Source: Ramlibacter sp. 2FC
GTDB taxonomy: Bacteria > Pseudomonadota > Gammaproteobacteria > Burkholderiales > Burkholderiaceae_C
Length of the DNA stretch: 47,114 nt
Direction of reading: 5' to 3'
Assembly: GCA_943372585.1 (NCBI GenBank)
Contig: CALRZF020000001.1
Span: 1-47,114 of the forward strand
Part shown: piece after piece, positions 1,212 through 12,506 of the stretch
Layout of the letters: each line of letters opens with the position of its first letter
Numbering within the stretch: the first letter of the stretch is position 1
Program-made: the position numbers and the translations under genes
The notes under the pieces: generated by a model
What the model saw: only the letters and a program-made list of their open reading frames with translations
Told to the model about the DNA's origin: nothing
The model's database searches: none

Positions 1212-1912
1212 AGGGATCCTCCTCCTTGATGACGCCCGTCCTGCGCATGCTTGGCACAGACATTGGCAGCTTGACTGTATCAATTTTCTTTAGTTTTTCA
1301 TCCCCAATGTTGAGGATGCGCGCGCGAGCCAAATTGGGCTTCCTGACCTTTCGCTGCTGCGAAGCCTCATAGGTAGAAACGCGTGGAGACAGCGTCATTC
1401 GCGCTTGAGTTTGTCTAGACATGCCGGCCGAACGTAGAAAAGAGCGGCCAGGGGGATGCGCAGCGGCGCTTCTTAGTGCTGTGCCGCGCAGATCCCGATC
1501 AGGAGCGAAACTTTGCGCAGGTGAAACTGCGTGTCGCAGTCATCGATCGCATTGCCTACCCGTCCGCGATAGAGTTTCACCAATAATTAACCTATGCCAA
1601 GCGCCGAACTGGTCGACTTCGATGACGAGGGCTTGTTGGAGCTGCAGGACGCGGCGAATCCCACCGTTACGCGCCGCAAGGGGCGGGCGACTGAGTACAG
1701 GTGATGTACCGGAAGTGCCGCATGCTTGTTCGGTTCGTCACACCAGTGCGCGCAGGGTGGTGGGAACGCGGATCAGGCGGCGCTGCCGCTGACCACTAGT
1801 AATTAGATGCCTCAGTACGCCAGTACTGGGACGCTATGCTTGTTAGGATGAGAGTTGATTTCAAGAGCAAAGAGCAACTCTGGTAAGCCAGTTCGCAAGT
1901 TGGCCACCCAAG

Positions 1913-2575
1913 TCATATGGACATTGCACGCAGATGCAGAAACGACGACTGCCACCCTTCGCTAAACACATGCAAAAACCACCAAACGACAAATAGCGTT
2001 GGCGCCAGCATGAAAGCGCCAGCAGAGGTGCAGTCTAGGCAGCCTTGGGCCAGGAGTTGAACCGCACCACCCAGTACTACGTAACAAGAAATCGCAGCCC
2101 AGACTTTTCGGACGATGCTGATTGCCTGGATGGGCAACTTGGGTGGCTCACGCAAATGAAGCCGCTGGTCTTTGCACTGCGCAGCAAGATTGCACACCAG
2201 GCCTCGAAAAGTCCACCAATTCAGGCCATGTGACTGCCGGATGATTCGCAGTCTCGCCCTCTCAGCGGGACTGAGATCTAGACGACCAAATTCCGCAGCA
2301 GTCAGATTTCGCTCTGCCTTGCCCAGTAGGTCCCAATATTCCGGAGTGCCTGGCGTCAATTGACGAGCACGTTCTTTCCAGAGCATATGGCGGCGGTAAA
2401 CAATCGGGTGGAAGAGCGCAAGTCGCCATCCAGATCTGAAACAGTTGACGTAGCCAGACAAGTTGAATTCACCGTAGTCGATGAAGAGTCGAACAGCCTC
2501 CGGCCCCCCATGTCTGGCCTCCTCGACCATCCTTCTTGCAAGGTCGGCCAGATCGTCTTGATCCGGCTTATCCAT
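1913..2575 (-). CDS. hypothetical membrane protein, translationally coupled to the upstream XRE gene
   Basis: ORF track gives 1913..2611. ATG at 2575 is preferred: RC upstream reads GGGAAAAGGAAACCC-ATG (SD-like), and it overlaps the XRE stop (2568-2570) by 8 nt. A soluble N-terminal part is followed by two hydrophobic helices (VWAAISCYVVLGGAVQLLAQG, AFMLAPTLFVVWWFLHVF). No family recognised. Confidence 0.6.
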   Translation of the reverse strand: MDKPDQDDLADLARRMVEEARHGGPEAVRLFIDYGEFNLSGYVNCFRSGWRLALFHPIVYRRHMLWKERARQLTPGTPEYWDLLGKAERNLTAAEFGRLDLSPAERARLRIIRQSHGLNWWTFRGLVCNLAAQCKDQRLHLREPPKLPIQAISIVRKVWAAISCYVVLGGAVQLLAQGCLDCTSAGAFMLAPTLFVVWWFLHVFSEGWQSSFLHLRAMSI

Positions 2576-3008
2576 GGGTTTCCTTTTCCCACATCGCGCT
2601 GACCAGGTCATTGCGGTCTTGACGTTGGGTTAGCGACTGCTTGCTTCGCTTGTGCTCTACATAAGCGGCATAAAGACGCTCAACCAGGTCACGTCGCATG
2701 CCTTCTGGGCAGTCCGGCACGCGTCGCGCACAGAACAAGCCGACATCCTCCACGGCTTGCCAGAGGAGAGGCCAATCGATTGCTCCTTGACAGTCCTCTG
2801 CGCGAACACCAAAGAGAACGAACGGTATGTCGACGCCGGCGCCCTCGACGCCGCGTAGATAGCCAAGAGTCGGATCGCTGGAGCCCGCCTCATATTTGTA
2901 CTGCGTTCGCCTGTCCACTTCACCAGCCTTGCCCAATTCCACTTGGGTCAGCCCAAGGCGCTGGCGTTCGGATTTGAGGCGGTCGCGTAGGAGGGCAATC
3001 AAATTCAT
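2568..3008 (-). CDS. XRE (Cro/C1) family HTH transcriptional regulator
   Basis: ORF track gives 2568..3083. Internal ATG 3008 is preferred because MNLIALLRDRLKSERQRLGLTQVELGKAGEVDRRTQYKYEAG is a canonical XRE HTH placed near the N-terminus. The longer form would also overlap the divergent gene starting at 3066. Confidence 0.7.
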   Translation of the reverse strand: MNLIALLRDRLKSERQRLGLTQVELGKAGEVDRRTQYKYEAGSSDPTLGYLRGVEGAGVDIPFVLFGVRAEDCQGAIDWPLLWQAVEDVGLFCARRVPDCPEGMRRDLVERLYAAYVEHKRSKQSLTQRQDRNDLVSAMWEKETHG

Positions 3009-3065
3009 AGAAATCAGAGTGTATTGTCCTTGTGAATCGACGTTAAGTGAACAATAATTCCCATC

Positions 3066-3365
3066 ATGGGCATTAATAGTCATTCAAAGACGTTTCAATC
3101 CGCGGAGATCAAGTCTGAATTTCAGCTCCAAGGGATGTCTATTGCGGCATGGGCGCGCGCGCGTGCCTTTGATCCACGCTTGGTCTATGCCGTATTGGGG
3201 GGGAAAAACAAGGCGTCGCGTGGCAAAAGCCATCTGATTGCGGTCGCCCTGGGTATCAAGCCGGGGCCGCAAATCACGGAAAGAACAATGCAGCTGGGCT
3301 TGGCCAGTGCACTGGGATCCCCGGATGGCTCAGTAGATGCGTCCCAGCTAGGGGAGTCCATATGA
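3066..3365 (+). CDS. small Ner/Nlp-like (HTH_35-like) DNA-binding protein
   Basis: 99 aa. AEIKSEFQLQGMSIAAWARARAFDPRLVYAVLGGKNKASRGKSHLIAVALGIKP follows the Ner/Nlp pattern (IK..l...G.SlaalAr..g......y.al......kg...IA.aLG..P). It is divergent from the XRE gene across a 57-bp AT-rich spacer. Confidence 0.55.
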   Translation: MGINSHSKTFQSAEIKSEFQLQGMSIAAWARARAFDPRLVYAVLGGKNKASRGKSHLIAVALGIKPGPQITERTMQLGLASALGSPDGSVDASQLGESI

Positions 3366-3433
3366 GCCCATAAAACTAAAACGCCCACCTATTTTCATAG
3401 GCAGGCGAGTCAGCCGTTGGCAGAACCAAACGT

Positions 3434-3498
3434 TGTGGTGACTGAAGTATCTGCTAGCGGTTGACCGGCTGTCAAGGCTTTGTCGTCCCTGAAAAACA
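3434..3498 (+). repeat. candidate right-end TnsB-binding repeats
   Basis: Direct repeats TGTGGTGACTGAAGTA (3434-3449) and TGTCGTCCCTGAAAAA (3481-3496), 11/16 identical, consensus TGTsGTnnCTGAA. TGTCAA also occurs at 3470 and 3527. They lie just upstream of tnsA, as expected for a Tn7-type right end. Confidence 0.35.
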
Positions 3499-3525
3499 AA
3501 TCTCAGGGCAGCTTGAAAGAAAACC

Positions 3526-4252
3526 GTGTCAAAAAACCTGCAGAACAGACTGCGCGAGCTCGCGCCGGGCGGCGCCGAGCCCAAACAACCCCGGAACCTG
3601 GTGACCCGAAGCGGCACCCGCGTCAGAGGAATCCACACTTCCCTGCGGTTCGGATCGCAAGTGCAATGGGAAACGCCTGAAGAACGAACTGCGATAGAGG
3701 TGCTGGATGCATCCCCATGGACGCTCGGCCTTGTGAGCCAGGCAACTCTGCTGACGATCCAGAGTTTTGAGGGCGAATTCAACTATGTGCCGGACATCGT
3801 GGCACTCCGGGAGCCTTCCGAGCTCCTCGTGATTGAGTGCAAGCCGCTGTCAGTGCTCCTGAGCGAGGAAATTCGCTCCAAACATCAGGCGATAGCACTG
3901 CAGATGAAGTCGCTAGGCGCCACCTTCATTGAACTCCCAAACGAGGTACAGCCCACTGCGGCTGTCCTGGAAAACGCGAGGCTCATGAAGGCAGCGCGCA
4001 GTTTGGTGGCCTATCCCAAAACAAAAAGAATGGAGGACGGGCGCTTGCTTGAGGAAGCGTCGGTAGCAACCTTTCGGCGACGTGTGCCGGCTCGTCGGAG
4101 CACGCCATGCCGTCGCAGCGTTAGTCATTCATGGCTGGCACTTCGATATGCATGCGCCTTTGCAACCCGAAACAGCCGTGTCACGGCAGTTCGAGGAGAG
4201 CTTTGATGGAGCGAATTACATTCACTCCGGGCTGTTCGGTTCGACTGTTTGA
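3526..4252 (+). pseudogene. tnsA: TnsA-type endonuclease gene with an apparent 1-nt frameshift near 4067-4078
   Basis: GTG start at 3526. Restriction-endonuclease-like motifs QWETPEE, YVPDIVAL, VIECKP. Frame 1 turns Arg-rich after ..EEASVATF and stops at 4206. Frame 2 (open from 4067) reads GDVCRLVGARHAVAALVIHGWHFDMHAPLQPETAV.., which is typical of a TnsA C-terminal domain, and stops at 4250-4252. Confidence 0.7.
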
Positions 4253-6296
4253 CCAAGTACATATCGTTTCAGGCGTTCGCGACAACAATTGGGTGGAGTT
4301 GATCACCGCCGACGGCAAGATCACCAAGACCCTGGATCTCACGACGCTCTTCGGACACTATCAAAGCGGAGGCCTGAAGCCAGGACCGAAACGCCGAGGC
4401 GCGAGAGTGCCCGAGCCGCATGCAGTTCTACGGCATATCCCGTACGCCGCTGCCGATCAAAGTGACGCAACAAAGCAGCAAGCGCAGGTGATGCGCGAGA
4501 TACTGCAGGCGGTGCAGGATGAGAACTGCCCGATTAAGGACGCCAGCAAATCGTTTCGCCGAACTGTTGCAGCCGTTGCGAAAAAGTTGAACGTCGAGCC
4601 CCCGAAAGCCCGCACCGTCCAGCGCTGGCTCGCGCGCCAGACCTATTCGGTTGGCGCTCGCCCGCTTGTTCCGAGGTTTGCCAATCGAGGTGGCAAAGGG
4701 CAATCGCGCTGCAGCCCGGAGGTTCAGGAGCTGATGGACGAGGTCATATTCAACGATTACATGACCACAGAGCGGCTTCCAGTTGCCCGATGCTACATGG
4801 ACCTATGCGCAAAGATTGCCGTTGCGAATCAGGCGCGCCCGTCAACCGACCTTCTGAAATCCCCATCGATCAATGCTTTCAGGAGGCGTATTCAAAGGCA
4901 GCCGGCCTTCGACATGTACGCAGCCCGCAACGGGCTGGGCGCCGCCAAGAAGAAGTTCCGGTCTACCGGTCGCAACGCCGAGAACTGGAAATTCATGGAG
5001 TGTTTTGAAGCTGACCACACCATCGTGGATGCTATGGTGGTCGACCTTGAAACTGGGCTGGTTCTCGGGCGGCCGCGCATTACCATCTTCATCGAATGGG
5101 TTACCAGGGCCTGTGTGGGGTTCACGATCGGATTTGAGGGCACTTCAACCCAGACAGTTCTGGAATGCTTGCATAACGCAGTCACACAGAAACTGGGCAT
5201 CAAGCAGCGATATCCATTGGTTCAGGGGAACTGGAACTGTTGGGGATTTCCTCGGTACCTCAAACTGGACAATGGCCCTGAATTCCACAGCGAAACCTTC
5301 GTCGGGTCCGCAAGTGAAATGGGCATTGATCTCATCTACTGCCCACGCAAAAAGGCATGGTTCAAAGGCCGGGTAGAAAGGGCCATCAAGCGGTTGAACG
5401 CTGAAATCATGGACGCCCTGCCCGGCGCGACACTGACCCAGCTCTACAACCGCGTTACCGAGCGCGACCCCTCCTCATGCGCAGTAATCGATCTGCAGTC
5501 TCTGCGGCACATCATGCACATCTGGGTGATCGACGTCTATCACCAAACCAAACACAAGGGTACAAACCGGCAACCAGGTCCGCATTGGGACGCGTGCTTT
5601 GATCTTGCTCAAGTCACCCTTCCTGCGGACCTTGGCTTGCTGGAGATTCTGTGCACTGAGCTGACGACACGTACGATCTTTCACTACGGCATCGAAATCT
5701 GTGGTGAACGGACGTTCAACAACTCTGAGCTGCAAGCTCTGCGTCGGCGTCAACAGTTTGGCGAATACGTGAAGGTCAAGGTGCGATACCGGCCTAGTAA
5801 GCTGGACAGGATCTGGGTATTCGACGCTGACAACCAAGAGTGGCTTGAAGTACTCAACTCCAACCCCGCCACGAATGATCTCGGGGAATTCCAGCTGAAG
5901 ATGCTGCATAAAATGCAGCGCGAGGCGATCTCTGCGGGGGAGCAGATCGACATCTTGACGGCGCGTCAACGCATGCGGAAGTTGGTTGAGTCGCTCAATA
6001 CTGCGAAGTCACAGCGTGCTCGCAAGAAAGCACTCAAGCTGCTGGGATTCACGAACAATCTCGACGCATTGAGCGCCACCGGAGCGGCCGATCCAGAGCC
6101 GCAATCGGATTTGGAAAATGAAGAAGTAGCTCAGAACAGCGAAACGTCAGCGCCACCGAACGGAGCCACAAAGCCCAAGCGTGGCCGTGCTGCAAAGACG
6201 CCTGACCTGCCTCCCGTCGAGCTGTATTCGGGCGTGATGCCGACCTTTCCGGCGTTTGATCCTCAAAGCCAGGCAGCCATGGGCGGTGCTGCATGA
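4206..6296 (+). CDS. tnsB: TnsB/TniA-family DDE transposase (rve integrase core, Mu-transposase-like C-terminus)
   Basis: ORF track gives 4131..6296. ATG 4206 (MERITFTPG..) is preferred because the upstream 25 codons lie in the tnsA tail. DDE triad: EADHTIVD, KLDNGPEFHS, and KGRVER about 35 aa after the second D. Confidence 0.9.
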   Translation: MERITFTPGCSVRLFDQVHIVSGVRDNNWVELITADGKITKTLDLTTLFGHYQSGGLKPGPKRRGARVPEPHAVLRHIPYAAADQSDATKQQAQVMREILQAVQDENCPIKDASKSFRRTVAAVAKKLNVEPPKARTVQRWLARQTYSVGARPLVPRFANRGGKGQSRCSPEVQELMDEVIFNDYMTTERLPVARCYMDLCAKIAVANQARPSTDLLKSPSINAFRRRIQRQPAFDMYAARNGLGAAKKKFRSTGRNAENWKFMECFEADHTIVDAMVVDLETGLVLGRPRITIFIEWVTRACVGFTIGFEGTSTQTVLECLHNAVTQKLGIKQRYPLVQGNWNCWGFPRYLKLDNGPEFHSETFVGSASEMGIDLIYCPRKKAWFKGRVERAIKRLNAEIMDALPGATLTQLYNRVTERDPSSCAVIDLQSLRHIMHIWVIDVYHQTKHKGTNRQPGPHWDACFDLAQVTLPADLGLLEILCTELTTRTIFHYGIEICGERTFNNSELQALRRRQQFGEYVKVKVRYRPSKLDRIWVFDADNQEWLEVLNSNPATNDLGEFQLKMLHKMQREAISAGEQIDILTARQRMRKLVESLNTAKSQRARKKALKLLGFTNNLDALSATGAADPEPQSDLENEEVAQNSETSAPPNGATKPKRGRAAKTPDLPPVELYSGVMPTFPAFDPQSQAAMGGAA

Positions 6297-7228
6297 TGCT
6301 GCGTCCCTACGAGCACATGGGTCCTCTGATAGCGGACCCGCATTTCAAAAGCGCCTGGCTGCGCGTGCAGCGGTGTCACAAGTCTTCAGCAAAGGGTTGT
6401 CGGCGGCAAAACCTCCGCCTCATTGGCGTATCCGGCGTGGGCAAGTCGCGACTGTTGATCGAGTACCGCGACGCACATCCCCCAATACACCACGAAGAGT
6501 ACACAGAGGTGCCGGTCATCTACGCGGAAGTACCCGCGCAACCTACTTCCAGACACCTAGCCCGGTGCCTGCTGACGGCCCTGGGCCGCCCCACGGAATC
6601 GGGAACAGCAGAAGAACTTTGGGCAACCTTCCAGCGCTTGTGTCGCGTCTGCAAGGTTCGTTTGATCTTGCTCGATGAGATACAGCACTTTGTTGACCGC
6701 GGAAGGGTCAGTACTTACGCTAACGACGCAGACATTCTCAAGCAGAACCTCTCAACGCTCGGCATCCCAACGGTGTTTGCCGGAGCCCCCCGATCGCGAT
6801 TGCTTTTCGAAGTAAACAACCAGTTGCGTGGCCGGTACAAGCCCATCCATGCGATGCGTCCATTTGCCCTTTCCAACGTAGATGAGATCGCACGTTTCAC
6901 GACCAGTGTCGCCACCGCAGCATCCAGCTTGCCGGACAAGGTTCTTCGCTTTCTGATCAGCCCGGCCATGATTCCGCGCTTGTTCTACGCAACTGACGGA
7001 ATCTTCCGAAATTTGCTGGACTTTCTGGATGGCGTCCGCGCAGTGCTGGAGGATAAGACGACATGTAGCCTTTCGCTGCTGTCTCTCGCCTTCCATGACA
7101 CGGTGTGGGTACCGGTCTCAAAAAAGGATGATCCTTTCAACGAGAGTTTTGTGCCCCGGCGGCTGATAAATCCAGGCGAGCCTTTCATGCCAAGCCCGAT
7201 GGATGGTGACAATCATGCGTACTACTGA
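6293..7228 (+). CDS. tnsC: TnsC/TniB-family AAA+ ATPase (short, 311 aa)
   Basis: Walker A GVSGVGKSRL and Walker B RLILLDEIQHF. ATGA start/stop overlap with tnsB at 6293-6296. Confidence 0.85.
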   Translation: MMLRPYEHMGPLIADPHFKSAWLRVQRCHKSSAKGCRRQNLRLIGVSGVGKSRLLIEYRDAHPPIHHEEYTEVPVIYAEVPAQPTSRHLARCLLTALGRPTESGTAEELWATFQRLCRVCKVRLILLDEIQHFVDRGRVSTYANDADILKQNLSTLGIPTVFAGAPRSRLLFEVNNQLRGRYKPIHAMRPFALSNVDEIARFTTSVATAASSLPDKVLRFLISPAMIPRLFYATDGIFRNLLDFLDGVRAVLEDKTTCSLSLLSLAFHDTVWVPVSKKDDPFNESFVPRRLINPGEPFMPSPMDGDNHAYY

Positions 7229-8117
7229 ACCAACGTCAGGTCCCGCCTTAGGACCTTGGGAATCAGCCGTGGCCCATATGGTGCGATCAGCGACGCTGAC
7301 CGGCTCAAGCTATGAACAATTAGCTGCACAGATCTCGTTGGGCTGTCGGGTAGATCAGTACATAGCAATCGGCGTTCGCGCTGAGAGGGCGCGCTACGCT
7401 GAATATCCGCAAGAAATTCACGCAGCAATGTCTGATGAAGCACCGAAGCCGCGAAGGCTCGTGTGCTCGCATTGCATACGTGAAAGACTGCCCGACAGCA
7501 TCTACGAGCGGCATCCGTACAACAGCTACTGCTTGACGCACGGGACACCGGCCTTGGCGAGGTGCCCTCGCTGCAGGCAGTTGCTGCGCTACGGTGCCAG
7601 CGACTATGACAATTGCGTATGCGGTCTTCGGTTCGACGAAGCAGACTCTAGTGGAGAAGCAGGTAGCGCGCCCACTCTGTACATGGCGGCAGCCGCAAAC
7701 GTCCCTATTGTCGAAGCGCCGAAATCGCTGGACCCCGGGGCCGACTGTCTGGACGCCATTCATGAACGGCTATCGTCTACCTGGCGGTTCATCTGTGCAG
7801 ACACCCCTGAGCAGGCAGATCACGACCCTGCTGATCTGCTGTCAAATCCGGCGAGGCTCTGGTCACACGCCTTGGACATTGTGTGTGCTGGCGGCCTGAC
7901 TTTTGAGCAGTGGGTGGTCGCAAAAATCCAGCGCTGGCGCGACTACACCCAACCGTCTTTGTATTTGGACTACTGCGTAGGAGATGACTTCGTCCGTACC
8001 AATCACTTTGCCTGGAGTTACCTGCGACGCCTTGTCGATCGGGAACTGAAAACCTGTTTTCGCACCCGCAGGCAGCCTGGACTGTTTGACGCTGAAAGCG
8101 AAGGCGCATGTCAGTGA
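7203..8117 (+). CDS. tniQ: TniQ/TnsD-family target-selector protein, copy 1
   Basis: N-terminal TniQ-like LGPWESAVAHMVRSATLTG, then a zinc-ribbon region CSHCIRE..SYCLTHG..CPRCRQ..C.C. Alternative ATG at 7215. Overlaps the tnsC stop at 7228. Confidence 0.7.
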   Translation: MVTIMRTTEPTSGPALGPWESAVAHMVRSATLTGSSYEQLAAQISLGCRVDQYIAIGVRAERARYAEYPQEIHAAMSDEAPKPRRLVCSHCIRERLPDSIYERHPYNSYCLTHGTPALARCPRCRQLLRYGASDYDNCVCGLRFDEADSSGEAGSAPTLYMAAAANVPIVEAPKSLDPGADCLDAIHERLSSTWRFICADTPEQADHDPADLLSNPARLWSHALDIVCAGGLTFEQWVVAKIQRWRDYTQPSLYLDYCVGDDFVRTNHFAWSYLRRLVDRELKTCFRTRRQPGLFDAESEGACQ

Positions 8118-9013
8118 AGATCCATTCCGGGCAGACGCTTCTTCTGGTAAGACCGCCCCCATGCGTGGATGAGAGCTGTTCTTCTTGGGCGCACCGGGTC
8201 GCGCTTGCGAATGGATACAGCTGCGCTCTGCAAATGCTGCGTGTAACTGCTGGACCCGTCTCGGCCTTCGTTGATCTGGATTTTGACCCTCCAGGTGAAG
8301 TACACCAGGTGCTTGGGCGCCTGACCGGTTATGCCCAGGAAGTGATTGCCGCGCTTTGCGCGCCCGCGACACCGACGGACTCATGGCACGGCGTCCCCCT
8401 GCGCCATGCAGTCACGCATCGCACTTTTCGCGGCCGGCGCAACAGTGTCGCTACCACGCCCGTCTGTGTTCAATGTGTGCGCCAGCGCGTTCCTGCTCGT
8501 TGGGACTTGTCTTGGAGGTACTCTTGGACAACGGGCTGCAATGTGCATCGCACTCCTTTACAGGACACCTGCAGCCACTGCCAGGAGCCGATCGAAGCCG
8601 ATCTATCCAGAACTGCTTCGATCAGGAATTGTCTGCGGTGCGGCAAAAAGTTTTCGCTTCGGAAAATACCTGCGCGCGATGAACCAATAGCGACATTGGA
8701 TGTTGAACGTCAGTTGAACACTGGGTGTCTTGCGGGTTCCGCTGATTCCAAGGCAGTGCTGAGTGAAATTTTCGAGTGGGGACGATGGGAGTACTTTGCG
8801 CTGGCTAAAGCAGAGAGCGGGTCGCTTGAAGCTGTGAAGGCTTTTGAGTTTCTGTCGTCACACCCGCCCATCCGATATTCCGTGGGCTCAATGCCTGTCA
8901 ACGTGCGACGCGTCTTCTGGGATCACGTTGGGAAGGTACTTGCCCGGCAGACGGTTGAGCCGTCATCGCTCAGCCAGGTACACAACCTCAAGCCGTTTAA
9001 GGAAATTCAATGA
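8108..9013 (+). CDS. tniQ: TniQ/TnsD-family target-selector protein, copy 2
   Basis: LLLVRPPPCVDESCSSWAHRVALANGYS (classic TniQ N-terminus). CVQCVRQRVPARWDLSWRYSWTTGCNVHRTPLQDTCSHCQEPI and CLRCGKKF. Overlaps the stop of copy 1 (8115-8117); alternative GTG at 8114. Confidence 0.8.
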   Translation: MSVKIHSGQTLLLVRPPPCVDESCSSWAHRVALANGYSCALQMLRVTAGPVSAFVDLDFDPPGEVHQVLGRLTGYAQEVIAALCAPATPTDSWHGVPLRHAVTHRTFRGRRNSVATTPVCVQCVRQRVPARWDLSWRYSWTTGCNVHRTPLQDTCSHCQEPIEADLSRTASIRNCLRCGKKFSLRKIPARDEPIATLDVERQLNTGCLAGSADSKAVLSEIFEWGRWEYFALAKAESGSLEAVKAFEFLSSHPPIRYSVGSMPVNVRRVFWDHVGKVLARQTVEPSSLSQVHNLKPFKEIQ

Positions 9014-9939
9014 ATGCGGATGAGCTGCTCGCTGACTGGTTCGCGCTGAGTCGGAAGAGGCCATTCAGTGAGTCGACGATTCAGATCTATGCCCGCATCT
9101 GGGCTATGTGGTGTGAATGGTTGGGAAAGGAGAGCAAGAGTCGTGCTGAAGGATCGCTTTGCTTTTTGACCGCAACCTCTGAAGATGTTTCCAAATTTCT
9201 CCAGTCACCATACCCTGGTTATTGGGTGAGACATCAGCAGCCGTCTAGCGATAGGCCCAAAAATAGATATCTTCAACTTCTCGGTCGAATCTACGACCAC
9301 GCGCTGAGATGCGGCGTCATGGATTGCAATCCGACGCGCGAGCTTGACAGTTCTTTGGCGGGTGATCGGGGCCCGATACCCCAGACTCTGACCCCAGCTG
9401 AATGGGCTGCGATCTATTCCGGAATGCCAATGGGTTGCAAACGGAGTGACTTACGCGATCGCGCTGTCATGTTGTTGCTGATGGATGCCGGCCTGTCTAC
9501 AGGGGAGATGGCTGCGCTGGAACGCTCCGATGTTGAGCGGGATATTTTGACGCGGTCCCAATTGCAAGTTGTGATCCGAGGATCAAGGGATGCGCAAAGG
9601 CGTACATTGAAGTTGAACCTGAGAACGAGCCTGACGCTCGAGAGGTGGCTGCAAGAGCGAGAATCAGTCATGCAATCGCCGCAGGTCAAAGGCGATCCCG
9701 TTTTTCTTACGGATACGCGCTCGCGGTTTACGCGGCGTGTTCTGGACTATTTGGCGAACCGGATGATTGGTGACGCCATTGGTGCGGCCGGGCCTCGTCG
9801 CCTTGCAAATGGCGGAGTCTCCATTGTGCGTAACACTCGCATCCTCATGTGGGCGCAAAGTGGCATGTCTCAGAAGCAGGTGATGCAAATGGCAGGCTTC
9901 ATCAACGAGTGGAGTTTCCGTGGCTTGTGGCCTAGTTGA
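9010..9939 (+). CDS. tyrosine-recombinase-fold protein lacking catalytic His/His/Tyr (TnsF-like candidate)
   Basis: N-terminal SAM-like core-binding region (STIQIYARIWAMWCEWL). Box I is retained (LRDRAVMLLLMDAGLSTGEMAALERSDV). The HxLRH position reads SIVRN. The LGH....TT..Y position reads AGFINEWSFRGLWPS-stop, with no Tyr. ATGA overlap with tniQ-2 at 9010-9013. Confidence 0.65.
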   Translation: MNADELLADWFALSRKRPFSESTIQIYARIWAMWCEWLGKESKSRAEGSLCFLTATSEDVSKFLQSPYPGYWVRHQQPSSDRPKNRYLQLLGRIYDHALRCGVMDCNPTRELDSSLAGDRGPIPQTLTPAEWAAIYSGMPMGCKRSDLRDRAVMLLLMDAGLSTGEMAALERSDVERDILTRSQLQVVIRGSRDAQRRTLKLNLRTSLTLERWLQERESVMQSPQVKGDPVFLTDTRSRFTRRVLDYLANRMIGDAIGAAGPRRLANGGVSIVRNTRILMWAQSGMSQKQVMQMAGFINEWSFRGLWPS

Positions 9940-10165
9940 CCCGGCTTTCCAGGCACCCCGCCTGAAATTGACCGCCGCACTCGCCAAACAAGTACGGATC
10001 GGTCGCGGGGCGATGACTAAATCAGCCAGTGAAACCAGCAGCACCCAAAAAGCAAAAAGCCTCCGTGAGGAGGTCTCTGCTCTTTGCGTCGGGGCGCCCT
10101 TGGAGAGTAATGCCGATCAACGCGCCGTCGAATCTTACTTGAATCCAACCGACAAGTGAAGCTAA

Positions 10166-10279
10166 TGTTTCAGTACGGCAAGGCCCTGACGCTTTTGGTA
10201 GGACTAGGTCGGTTCAGCGGAGCAACCGTACTACTGAGTAGGGGTAAGCTTGTACTGCTGCGGCACCACCGCCACCACA
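10166..10279 (-). repeat. candidate left-end repeats (inverted relative to the right end)
   Basis: RC of 10190-10166, GTCAGGGCCTTGCCGTACTGAAACA, aligns with 3471-3498, GTCAAGGCTTTGTCGTCCCTGAAAAACA (about 20 of 26 positions with small gaps). RC of 10279-10271 is TGTGGTGGC. A weaker GCTGAAC copy lies at RC of about 10211-10225. Confidence 0.3.
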
Positions 10280-10280
10280 G

Positions 10281-11213
10281 CTAGTCCGGTAGGTGCCCAA
10301 ACGCTTGGTCCACAAAGCTGTCGCTCGGGTTCTTCCAAGTCTCACGCAGCAGGTAGCTGACGGGCACGCCCAGGTTGATGCCGTAGCCTGGCAAGGGCGA
10401 GTTGAGCCACTGCTCGTGCCACCGAGCCAGCACACCGCCCTGGATCAGCGCGCGCATCTCGCGCGACAGCACAGCGCGCAGCCGCGGCTCAGTAGTGCGA
10501 AAAGCCAGCGCCTTGGCGCGCATGGAATAGGCCTTGGGAATCACCGTGTAGCGCTCCGCGCCGGCCGACAGCCGGATCGCAAACAGGCTCGCGTCATCGG
10601 CAAACAACGCCTGCGCCTCGCCCTTTCGCAGCACTTCCATCGCAGCCTTCGGGTTGCGGGCCACCACGACGCCTGCGTTCACGCCCGTCTGCGCAAGCAC
10701 GTAGCGCAGCATTGCCTCGTTGCCCGACTGCGAGGTGGTCACCACCTTCTGCCCATGGAACCGTCCTAGGTCGGTGCCCTCTACGGCACCCGGCACCAGC
10801 AGCCGCGTCGCCGCGACGAACAGGGGGACCGTCAGCCCCACCTCCTTGAGCGACTGGTTGGACACGGTGGAGTCCGCGCAGTCGATGTCGATCAGGCCAT
10901 CCGCCAGCGCTGCATTGCGCTCGTTGGGCCCCACGGGCACCCACACAACCTGCAGCGCAAGCTTGAGTTCACGGCTGAGCGCGGCGGCAAAGTGCTTGCA
11001 GACCTCCACTGCCAGGCCGGCCGGCTCACCCGCTTTGTCAATGAACGAAAACGGCACGCTGGCCGTGCGGTGGCCCAGGTGGATCTTGCGGCTGACCTGC
11101 AACTTGTCCAGCGTGTCGGCGGCCACGGCCGTGGCCGCGAACAACGCCGCTACACCGGCAGCGCGTGCGGCACGTCGGATGATTTGTCGGACGTCAAACA
11201 TTCCAGCACCCAT
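10281..11213 (-). CDS. amino-acid ABC transporter substrate-binding protein (SBP family 3, GltI-like)
   Basis: Signal peptide RRAARAAGVAALFAATAVAA. Body typical of polar amino-acid binding proteins (IHLGHRTASVPFSF.., IDIDCADSTV..). Alternative ATG at 11201. The stop (10281-10283) directly abuts the accessory segment. Confidence 0.85.
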   Translation of the reverse strand: MGAGMFDVRQIIRRAARAAGVAALFAATAVAADTLDKLQVSRKIHLGHRTASVPFSFIDKAGEPAGLAVEVCKHFAAALSRELKLALQVVWVPVGPNERNAALADGLIDIDCADSTVSNQSLKEVGLTVPLFVAATRLLVPGAVEGTDLGRFHGQKVVTTSQSGNEAMLRYVLAQTGVNAGVVVARNPKAAMEVLRKGEAQALFADDASLFAIRLSAGAERYTVIPKAYSMRAKALAFRTTEPRLRAVLSREMRALIQGGVLARWHEQWLNSPLPGYGINLGVPVSYLLRETWKNPSDSFVDQAFGHLPD

Positions 11214-11737: not shown

Positions 11738-12506
11738 CAGCTCCCAAAACGATTACACAAATGGCCAGCAGCACCAGCGACAGGGCTGCCGCCGCCGGAA
11801 AGTCCCCGCCGCCGTCGCCCACCTTGGCCAGCAACAGAAGCGGCAGGATGTTGAGTTGCGTGCCCGCCAGCGCCAGCGCGGTGCCGTAGGTGCCCATGGC
11901 CAGCGCCGCGACCAGGCAGGCGCTGGCCAGCACCGAAGGCGCCACCTCGGGCACCACCGTGTCCCAGAACGCGCGCAGGCGGCTTGCGCCCAGCGTGCGT
12001 GCGGCCAACATCGGCCGCTCGTCCAGGTTGGCGAACACCGGGTACAGCGACAGCGCCACGCGCGGGATCAGGTAATACGCATACGCAAAACCCAACCCGC
12101 CCACGGTGTAGATCCAGCCGCCGACTTGAGCCGGGTCTGCGCCGAGCATGGCCAGCAGCTGCGTGACGAAGCCGGCGCGTCCAAATGCCAGGATGAAGCC
12201 GTAGGCAATGACCAGGCCCGAGAACGCCAGCGGCAGACCCAGCAGCGTCATCAGCCACTGGCGCCGCCCTTCGGGCTGGCGCGCCAGCTCGATCGCGATC
12301 GCCGTACCCACCACCGCCGACACCGCGCCGGCCAGCACGCCCAGCAACACCGTGTTGCGCGCCGCGCCCAGGAACAGCGGGTCGCCGAACACACGGCCAA
12401 ACGCGGCGCCGCCGTCGCTGAAGGCCTCCGGCACCAGCGCCAGCAGCGGCAGCCCAAAGAACAGCAGCAGGAAGATCCAGGCCGCAAGGCCCCCAAAGCG
12501 TCTCAT
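11685..12506 (-). CDS. ABC transporter permease (PotB/PotC-like)
   Basis: 273 aa, multiple TM segments. EAA-like loop AARTLGASRLRAFWDTVVPEVAPSV. Confidence 0.85.
   Translation of the reverse strand: MRRFGGLAAWIFLLLFFGLPLLALVPEAFSDGGAAFGRVFGDPLFLGAARNTVLLGVLAGAVSAVVGTAIAIELARQPEGRRQWLMTLLGLPLAFSGLVIAYGFILAFGRAGFVTQLLAMLGADPAQVGGWIYTVGGLGFAYAYYLIPRVALSLYPVFANLDERPMLAARTLGASRLRAFWDTVVPEVAPSVLASACLVAALAMGTYGTALALAGTQLNILPLLLLAKVGDGGGDFPAAAALSLVLLAICVIVLGAGDVITSRREQKALDNSH

Follow-up and report, generated by a model that had tools for sequence, protein, structure and literature searches.

TnsF of the Tn6022-family Tn7-like transposons is an inactivated tyrosine-recombinase-domain protein whose gene shares an operon with tniQ; it binds TniQ as well as the attachment site, and Tn6022 cannot transpose without it (Faure et al., 2023, PMC10293859; Peters lab, 2024, PMC11014353). 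It comprises 481–498 amino acids, with an N-terminal multi-zinc-finger region of approximately 200 amino acids, tandem core-binding domains (CB1-CB2) and a partial catalytic domain (PMC10293859, PMC11014353). The TnsF catalytic domain lacks the catalytic chamber and helix K, the target is comM, and active ancestors (Tsy) are known. TnsD of Tn7 carries long C-terminal DNA-binding extensions, and the 369-amino-acid TniQ of Tn6022 requires TnsF (PMC10293859). Here, a compact Tn7-like element is analysed that lies in a 47,114-nucleotide stretch of Ramlibacter sp. 2FC (assembly GCA_943372585.1, contig CALRZF020000001.1, positions 1 to 47,114 of the forward strand; hereafter the window). The last gene of its tns operon, xerL, directly follows the second of two tniQ genes and encodes a recombinase-fold protein that is predicted to be catalytically dead, and which is tentatively interpreted as a target selector partnered by TniQ.

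Like TnsF, XerL derives from the tyrosine recombinase fold and lacks the nucleophile, and its gene lies directly after, and overlaps, a short tniQ in an operon of the tnsABC-tniQ type. A role as DNA-binding adaptor, through which TniQ would select its target, is suggested for XerL by analogy only. In architecture, however, XerL is not TnsF. It is a protein of 309 amino acids in the window and 340 in its relatives, without a zinc-finger N-terminus: residues 1–116 form the core-binding (CB) domain, and the only five cysteines (C35, C51, C101, C106 and C143) include no CxxC pair. Its single CB domain is joined to a catalytic-domain fold that is complete but carries point substitutions. Two TniQs come before it, its element is not inserted in comM, and even its closest relatives are inactive. 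The published description of TnsF therefore sets XerL apart, and of the TnsF-like character that had been suggested for this gene in the original prediction the analogy (fold and tniQ overlap) stands, whereas the likeness does not extend to architecture. No Acinetobacter match examined carried TnsF, the Acinetobacter plasmid match being a TnsD-type element. XerL was probably recruited independently of TnsF. TnsF provides a precedent for a Tn7-like element that has recruited an inactive protein of recombinase fold to partner tniQ, but the architecture and the family of XerL are new.

The Tn5053/Tn402 (tniABQ-tniR) elements resemble the present one in that a recombinase-family gene comes after those for a TniB-type ATPase and a Pfam TniQ protein, and the nearest plasmid-borne relatives of tniQ-2 are of this type. 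However, TniR is an active serine resolvase that works at res, and those elements have no TnsA, whereas XerL has an inactive tyrosine recombinase fold, is translationally coupled, and is accompanied by a TnsA-like gene.

XerL has a complete recombinase fold and a substituted active site

The features of the window that concern xerL directly are as follows.

8108..9013, plus strand: tniQ-2, 301 amino acids, the presumed partner of xerL (Pfam TniQ, E 1e-11)
8999..9013, plus strand: translational coupling signal, AAGGA at 8999-9003 and then ATGA at 9010-9013
9010..9939, plus strand: xerL, 309-amino-acid tyrosine-recombinase-fold protein, whose translation agrees with the residues quoted in the original prediction
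9940..10032, plus strand: former 31-codon xerL tail; relatives stop at the equivalent of 10030-10032, and the window copy is cut at the TGA at 9937-9939

The XerC/D-like layout that had been proposed for the product of this open reading frame (ORF) is borne out by its translation, by matches to sequence models, and by structure prediction and comparison. The NCBIfam XerD and XerC models match XerL with E-values of approximately 1e-14 (model positions 7-215/227 of 290-300), with scores below the curated cutoffs (52.5 versus 329.6 for XerD; 50.7 versus 335 for XerC). The Pfam Phage_integrase model (PF00589) matches with an E-value of 6e-5 and 23.4 bits, against a cutoff of 27.1, the PHROG integrase matches at 1e-13, and XerD of known structure (PDB 1a0p) at 6e-4. 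Sequence models see a tyrosine recombinase in the first two thirds of the protein only. AlphaFold2, given a 106-sequence alignment, returned a model with a predicted local distance difference test (pLDDT) score of 90.2 and a predicted template modelling (pTM) score of 0.80; a model built from a 4-sequence alignment (pLDDT 33) was discarded. Foldseek matched the high-confidence model over its full length to XerA, Cre, lambda Int, XerH and Tn1549 Int (E 5e-10 to 1e-7), and XerC/XerD/XerA-type proteins are the best matches in both sequence and structure. The model consists of a single N-terminal helical core-binding domain followed by a complete catalytic-type (CAT) domain, the helices of which include residues 242–258, 269–283, 288–295 and 300–303. 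This is the two-domain CB plus CAT fold of the tyrosine recombinases.

The catalytic positions were placed by profile-to-sequence alignment of XerL with an active Xer recombinase (hhalign probability 98%). In common with XerC, XerD and XerA (PF00589; PDB 1a0p, 5hxy), XerL retains the two-domain fold, box I with Arg-I (R149), Arg-II (R274) and the β-hairpin geometry. It differs from them in that the β-hairpin Lys is replaced by Q196, His-II by S271, His/Trp-III by F297 and the nucleophilic Tyr by W307, and in having no dif context; the residue after Arg-II is N275 in place of His. Four of the six residues of the R-K-H-R-H/W-Y hexad are thus replaced (R149/Q196/S271/R274/F297/W307), and neither His nor Tyr occupies a catalytic position. 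The original prediction had aligned SIVRN and AGFINEWSFRGLWPS by eye with the C-terminal catalytic motifs, and had reported that the box I Arg is kept; the profile alignment places the same residues in the same register. As judged from the alignment and the model, XerL is predicted to be unable to recombine DNA by the canonical mechanism, as had been claimed.

xerL is coupled to tniQ-2 and retained by selection

The ATG of xerL overlaps the TGA of tniQ-2 as ATGA (9010-9013), and a Shine–Dalgarno-like AAGGA (8999-9003) lies 6 nt upstream of this ATG. The window was compared with a set of related loci, designated here by L-numbers. The 4-bp overlap is kept in every related copy of the element (L001, L024-26 and L027-31), and both xerL and the overlap are retained by every element with a TniQ-2 at least 80% identical (range 80–100%). 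This agrees with the earlier view that xerL is part of the transposition operon. The ratio of non-synonymous to synonymous substitution rates (dN/dS) for xerL is 0.25–0.39 in comparisons with three diverged copies, compared with 0.30 for tniQ-2 and 0.13 for tnsC. Because these values are low and close to that of tniQ-2, xerL is, on the substitution data, a functional gene under purifying selection, and neither a chance ORF nor a relic.

In five sister lineages the xerL homologues are 340 amino acids long, the TGA that ends the window copy (9937-9939) being read through, and the former tail in the window has acquired a second in-frame stop (TAA, 10018-10020). The 31-residue tail of the longer relatives (LPGFAGTPPAIDRRARRTSTDRSLGDDQISQ) contains no Tyr and no His, so a normal C-terminus is not hidden behind a frameshift, a possibility that the original prediction had raised against itself. 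The truncation falls 3 residues past L306, the last family-conserved position, and the folded core of XerL is therefore complete. The left-limit region of the window is also approximately 4 bp shorter than in L001 and L031. With two in-frame stops in xerL and this small deletion, the window copy may be starting to decay. In a different copy (L030, 10001-12580, on a 42-kb JGI contig), TnsA is shortened to 181 amino acids and TnsB is fragmented (473 amino acids), and xerL is intact at 340 amino acids.

XerL belongs to a Tyr-less recombinase-fold family

Word-indexed homologue searches gave near-identical copies only, and the wider family was revealed by an exhaustive HMMER search. With XerL as the query, this search returned 300 cluster representatives (50% identity) at E ≤1e-3, of which 83 fell below 1e-10. 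Nearly all of the matches are full-length (320–360 amino acids) and 25–38% identical to XerL. Ordinary Xer proteins (HxLRH...LGH...Y) first appear at an E-value of approximately 1e-7, and the weakest of the 300 clusters are ordinary active Xer recombinases.

HxLRH is replaced by [LVIM]RN[TS] in 112 of the 149 top matches. In the family alignment of 106 sequences, Arg-I and Arg-II are each present in 106/106. The Lys position is occupied by Gln in 91/106 and by Lys in 0/106, the His-II position by Gln, Asn or Met, and the residue after Arg-II is Asn in 97/106. Leu stands at the His-III position in 71/106 sequences, and the Tyr position holds Arg, Ala or Leu, with Tyr in none. As far as the alignment can tell, the whole family lost its catalytic activity long ago.

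This Tyr-less 'LRNT/AGLKD' family was defined by a length of approximately 320–360 amino acids, by the invariant residues W31, R86, Y95, R149, R198 and R274, by [LVIM]RN[TS] in place of LRH, and by AG[LFY]K[DN]...L where LGH...Y would stand. XerL belongs to it over its full length (E 1e-37 to 1e-10), with all of the family-invariant residues and with IVRNT and AGFINEWSFRGL as its versions of the two motifs. In their source records family members are named 'site-specific integrase' or 'hypothetical protein'; the integrase label is a mis-annotation. No literature description was found of an Xer-like family without the Tyr, nor, TnsF aside, of a protein of this kind in a Tn7-like operon, and we take the family, which belongs to Burkholderiales mobile elements, to be previously undescribed and delineated here.

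Only the XerL clade was found within a Tn7-like operon. The 11 members that were sampled from the rest of the family are all stand-alone genes, none of which adjoins tniQ or tns genes. Three of the 11 are on plasmids of Delftia, Cupriavidus and Acidovorax, and six are in accessory or defence-type neighbourhoods, with genes for KAP NTPase/HNH/Mrr, an Mrr_N-methyltransferase, OLD plus UvrD, Fic or PemK. The other two, in a Xylophilus metagenome-assembled genome (MAG) and a Burkholderiaceae MAG, are lone genes between tadA (tRNA adenosine deaminase) and maf-rlmH-rsfS, which suggests that Tyr-less proteins of this fold have a conserved place in the chromosome between these genes. The closest relatives of XerL outside transposons (31–43% identity) both lie in this tadA-maf slot, at L011 9992-11002 and L013 1422-2435. 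Genes for N6_N4 methyltransferases recur near stand-alone members (L016 689-1921 and L034 9312-10541, both with Mrr_N), and one is also found in the left flank of a transposon copy (L031, 1118-2809).

XerL as a candidate target selector

The reading that we favour, tentatively and at somewhat less than even probability, is that XerL is a non-catalytic, DNA-binding recombinase-fold protein that was recruited into the machinery of a compact Tn7-like transposon as a target selector partnered by TniQ. Translational coupling would keep XerL in a fixed ratio to TniQ-2. Its core-binding and catalytic-fold domains would clamp a specific DNA site, with the two retained Arg residues and the invariant R198 still holding the phosphate backbone, and XerL would present this site to the short TniQ-2, which itself has no DNA-binding extension. 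TniQ-2 would then nucleate TnsC, and TnsC would recruit TnsA/TnsB for insertion nearby; TniQ-1 may serve a second targeting pathway. This reading is suggested by the conserved coupling, the purifying selection, the lack of other cargo, the shortness of the TniQs (both approximately 300 amino acids) and the precedent of TnsF.

Several observations weigh against a selector role. The window's own xerL copy stops prematurely relative to all relatives. Since the 11 sampled members from outside the XerL clade stand alone, away from Tn7-like elements, the family appears to have another primary function, and this weakens the idea that it is intrinsically a family of transposon selectors. A distant relative of the element, on a Piscinibacter plasmid (L032), has a large serine recombinase gene in the same position after tniQ, and the slot after tniQ may simply collect recombinase genes. 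Moreover, no terminal inverted repeats, repeated TnsB sites or 5-bp duplication were found at the limits of homology, and the four genomic contexts of the element have no demonstrable common target, the similarities between flanks being short and mostly non-significant.

xerL might instead be a passenger, the sole cargo of the element, which does the transposition-independent job of its family, perhaps regulation through DNA binding, or the maintenance of a plasmid or island. We regard this as unlikely, though by no means far-fetched, given that the other sampled members are lone genes with no tns genes nearby (Comamonadaceae/Cupriavidus plasmids, defence/accessory islands and the tadA-maf slot) and that the stretch from the last targeting gene to the far end is exactly where Tn7-like cargo normally sits. 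Such a passenger would hardly be expected to share a 4-bp start/stop overlap with tniQ-2 in all copies or to be without a separate promoter region, and the clade is only 31–38% identical to the nearest stand-alone members, which argues for a long evolution inside the operon. The conserved unit contains only the tns genes, xerL, two helix-turn-helix (HTH) regulators and a 232-amino-acid ORF, with nothing else that is cargo-like, and therefore leaves little room for a pure passenger. A role for XerL as an accessory factor other than a selector, binding to an end or the tns promoter of the element itself and so contributing to transpososome shaping, expression regulation or target immunity, seems quite unlikely. 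It would fit the presence of candidate protein-binding or promoter regions within the unit: copies with an overall identity of 88–91% hardly differ in the 230 bp from xerL to the right limit, and between the window and L001, which are 91% identical across the element, positions 1889-1960 (72 bp) are 100% and 3360-3530 (171 bp) 98% identical. However, no repeat or palindrome in the element was of a size that would suit a recombinase-fold dimer, and a cI/Ner-like regulator pair is already present. The palindrome ACAAG-N6-CTTGT (5+6+5) near the right limit was considered as a recombinase-type site and rejected, being too short and broken in both L001 and the window.

Highly unlikely, in our estimation, is that XerL acts as an inactive partner of XerC or XerD, filling one half of a hybrid dif-like site at which the host recombinase exchanges strands, either for cointegrate resolution or for Xer-dependent integration. 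The XerC-like protein of Tn6022 islands does work with host XerD at a hybrid dif-like site (PMC11014353), and a resolvase gene follows tniQ in Tn5053-type relatives, as a serine recombinase gene does in L032. But the published XerC-like protein has all of its catalytic residues, whereas in XerL the Lys, the Tyr and both His are gone; the element showed no dif-like 11-6-11 site; and TnsA, which is present, usually removes the need for resolution. Least credible of all, and very improbable, is that xerL is a decaying pseudogene, the relic of a once-active integrase. Two in-frame stops in a reading frame that is 340 codons long elsewhere, and the small left-limit deletion relative to L001 and L031, are what such decay would look like. 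Set against this are dN/dS values well under 1 in three comparisons, a catalytic loss that is ancient and family-wide while the six family-invariant residues (W31, R86, Y95, R149, R198 and R274) are kept, a truncation that spares every family-conserved position up to L306, and a predicted fold of high confidence.

A bolder form of the selector reading seems unlikely to us. In it, XerL would be a second, independent recruitment of the tyrosine recombinase fold as a TniQ-dependent selector, drawn from the Tyr-less family of DNA-clamping proteins, and would steer the cargo-free element into other mobile elements as a 'res-hunter' with a decoy recombinase. The targets would then be plasmid maintenance or recombination regions and defence islands, not a chromosomal housekeeping gene. 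If XerL is a selector, Tn7-like transposons have recruited recombinase-fold proteins at least twice and in differing architectures, and the recombinase DNA clamp would be a recurrent solution for protein-guided targeting. The module would be compact (approximately 310 amino acids plus a 300-amino-acid TniQ), and its specificity could perhaps be re-engineered as for Cre and Xer. In addition, the analysis defines a sizeable Tyr-less recombinase-fold family on Burkholderiales plasmids, in islands and in the tadA-maf chromosomal slot.

Gene content of the element

The remaining features of the element are as follows.

1848..1866, no strand: left limit of the conserved unit, approximate; start of homology among copies
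1913..2611, minus strand: 232-amino-acid ORF with a hydrophobic C-terminus, conserved with the element (dN/dS 0.14)
2568..3365, divergent: regulatory pair, cI-like HTH protein (2568-3083, minus strand) and small Ner-like HTH protein (3066-3365, plus strand)
3526..4206, plus strand: tnsA-like endonuclease subunit (NCBIfam TnsA_like, E 2e-8, below the curated cutoff; a weak assignment)
4131..6296, plus strand: tnsB, DDE transposase (rve plus Mu-transpos_C)
6293..7228, plus strand: tnsC/tniB, AAA+ ATPase (Pfam TniB, E 7e-25)
7203..8117, plus strand: tniQ-1, divergent TniQ-like zinc-finger protein of 304 amino acids (PADLOC TniQ_IF, E 2.8e-5)
10060..10073, no strand: conserved GC hairpin CCTCC-GTGA-GGAGG between xerL and the right limit, terminator-like on the minus strand
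10171..10183, no strand: right limit of the conserved unit, approximate (...GTTTCAGTACGGCAAGG); flanks beyond it differ between contexts

The genes tnsA-tnsB-tnsC-tniQ1-tniQ2-xerL form a single, tightly packed operon, and a tnsA-like gene, a tnsB with DDE and Mu C-terminal domains, a tnsC and a tniQ in one operon mark the element as Tn7-like. The presence of two TniQ genes ahead of xerL, already proposed in the original prediction, is supported by the Pfam and PADLOC matches given above, and tniQ-1 and tniQ-2 match each other in BLASTP (E 4e-6) across the CxxC zinc-finger region. Rfam, tRNA and PADLOC searches of the region gave nothing relevant beyond the weak TniQ-1 match.

TnsB is at most 25–29% identical to plasmid-borne TnsBs. 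The distant relative L032 (NZ_CP136338.1, 4986-14883), whose TnsB is 27% identical, shares with the window the order HTH / small ORF / TnsA / TnsB / TniB / TniQ1 / TniQ2 but continues with the large serine recombinase. Its TniQ1-like ORF (9617-10597) is unannotated, and its PGAP-annotated TnsA is weakly matched by the tnsA-like product of the window. The Ner-like protein of the window matches phrog_925 (E 5e-21). The cI-like/Ner-like pair upstream of tnsA has the arrangement of the phage Mu c and ner genes, is kept in L001 and L031, and is similarly arranged on the Piscinibacter plasmid. Two RepB/ParB genes follow the serine recombinase in L032, and RepB/ParB genes also lie just past the element in L025.

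Limits, contexts and flanks of the element

Copies of the element with 88–95% DNA identity occur in four contexts that differ on both sides: the window; L001 with L002; L024, L025 and L031; and L027 to L030. These comparisons give sharp limits to a mobile unit of approximately 8.3 kb (approximately 1850-10183), homology on the right ending at 10171 (L001), 10183 (L024, L025 and L031) or approximately 10195 (L027-L029). The flanks that had been proposed for DNA-binding tests, at 3366-3433 and 10280-10350, are misplaced with respect to these limits (approximately 1850-1866 and 10171-10183); positions 3366-3525 are internal to the unit and form the promoter region upstream of tnsA, which is 98% conserved.

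Transposon ends were not found by scanning the window and L001 for repeats, inverted or direct, by a k-mer search for an inverted match of the left region to the right end, or by a pattern search for an inverted right terminus, and comparisons of the left flanks with the right end were not significant relative to shuffled controls. A 40-bp 'direct repeat' noticed by eye (1810-1850 versus 10170-10212) was reached in 57 of 1000 shuffles and is not claimed. Metagenome scans for relatives of tniQ-2 and for a 22-mer of the conserved left region gave no matches. Between contexts, the left flanks of L001 and L030 match at 15 of 16 positions, those of the window and L030 have the 9-mer CCTCAGTAC in common, and the right flanks of the window and L030 match at 22 of 25 positions.

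The G+C content is 55–58% within the unit and 62–69% in the chromosome to its right, which opens with an amino-acid ABC transporter operon (SBP_bac_3 gene). The ORFs to the left have no Pfam hit, and the flanks, as had been noted previously, are not comM. Positions 1-1865 contain no convincing ORF and gave no Pfam or PADLOC hit; with a G+C content of 57–60%, between those of the element and the chromosome, this segment may be degraded mobile DNA. Other copies of the element adjoin AbiE, RepB/ParB, LRAT-like and methyltransferase genes. In L001, two perfect palindromes with arms of 23 and 24 nt and a 1-nt spacer (12237-12283 and 12321-12369) lie upstream of the AbiEi/AbiEii-like pair that adjoins the element.

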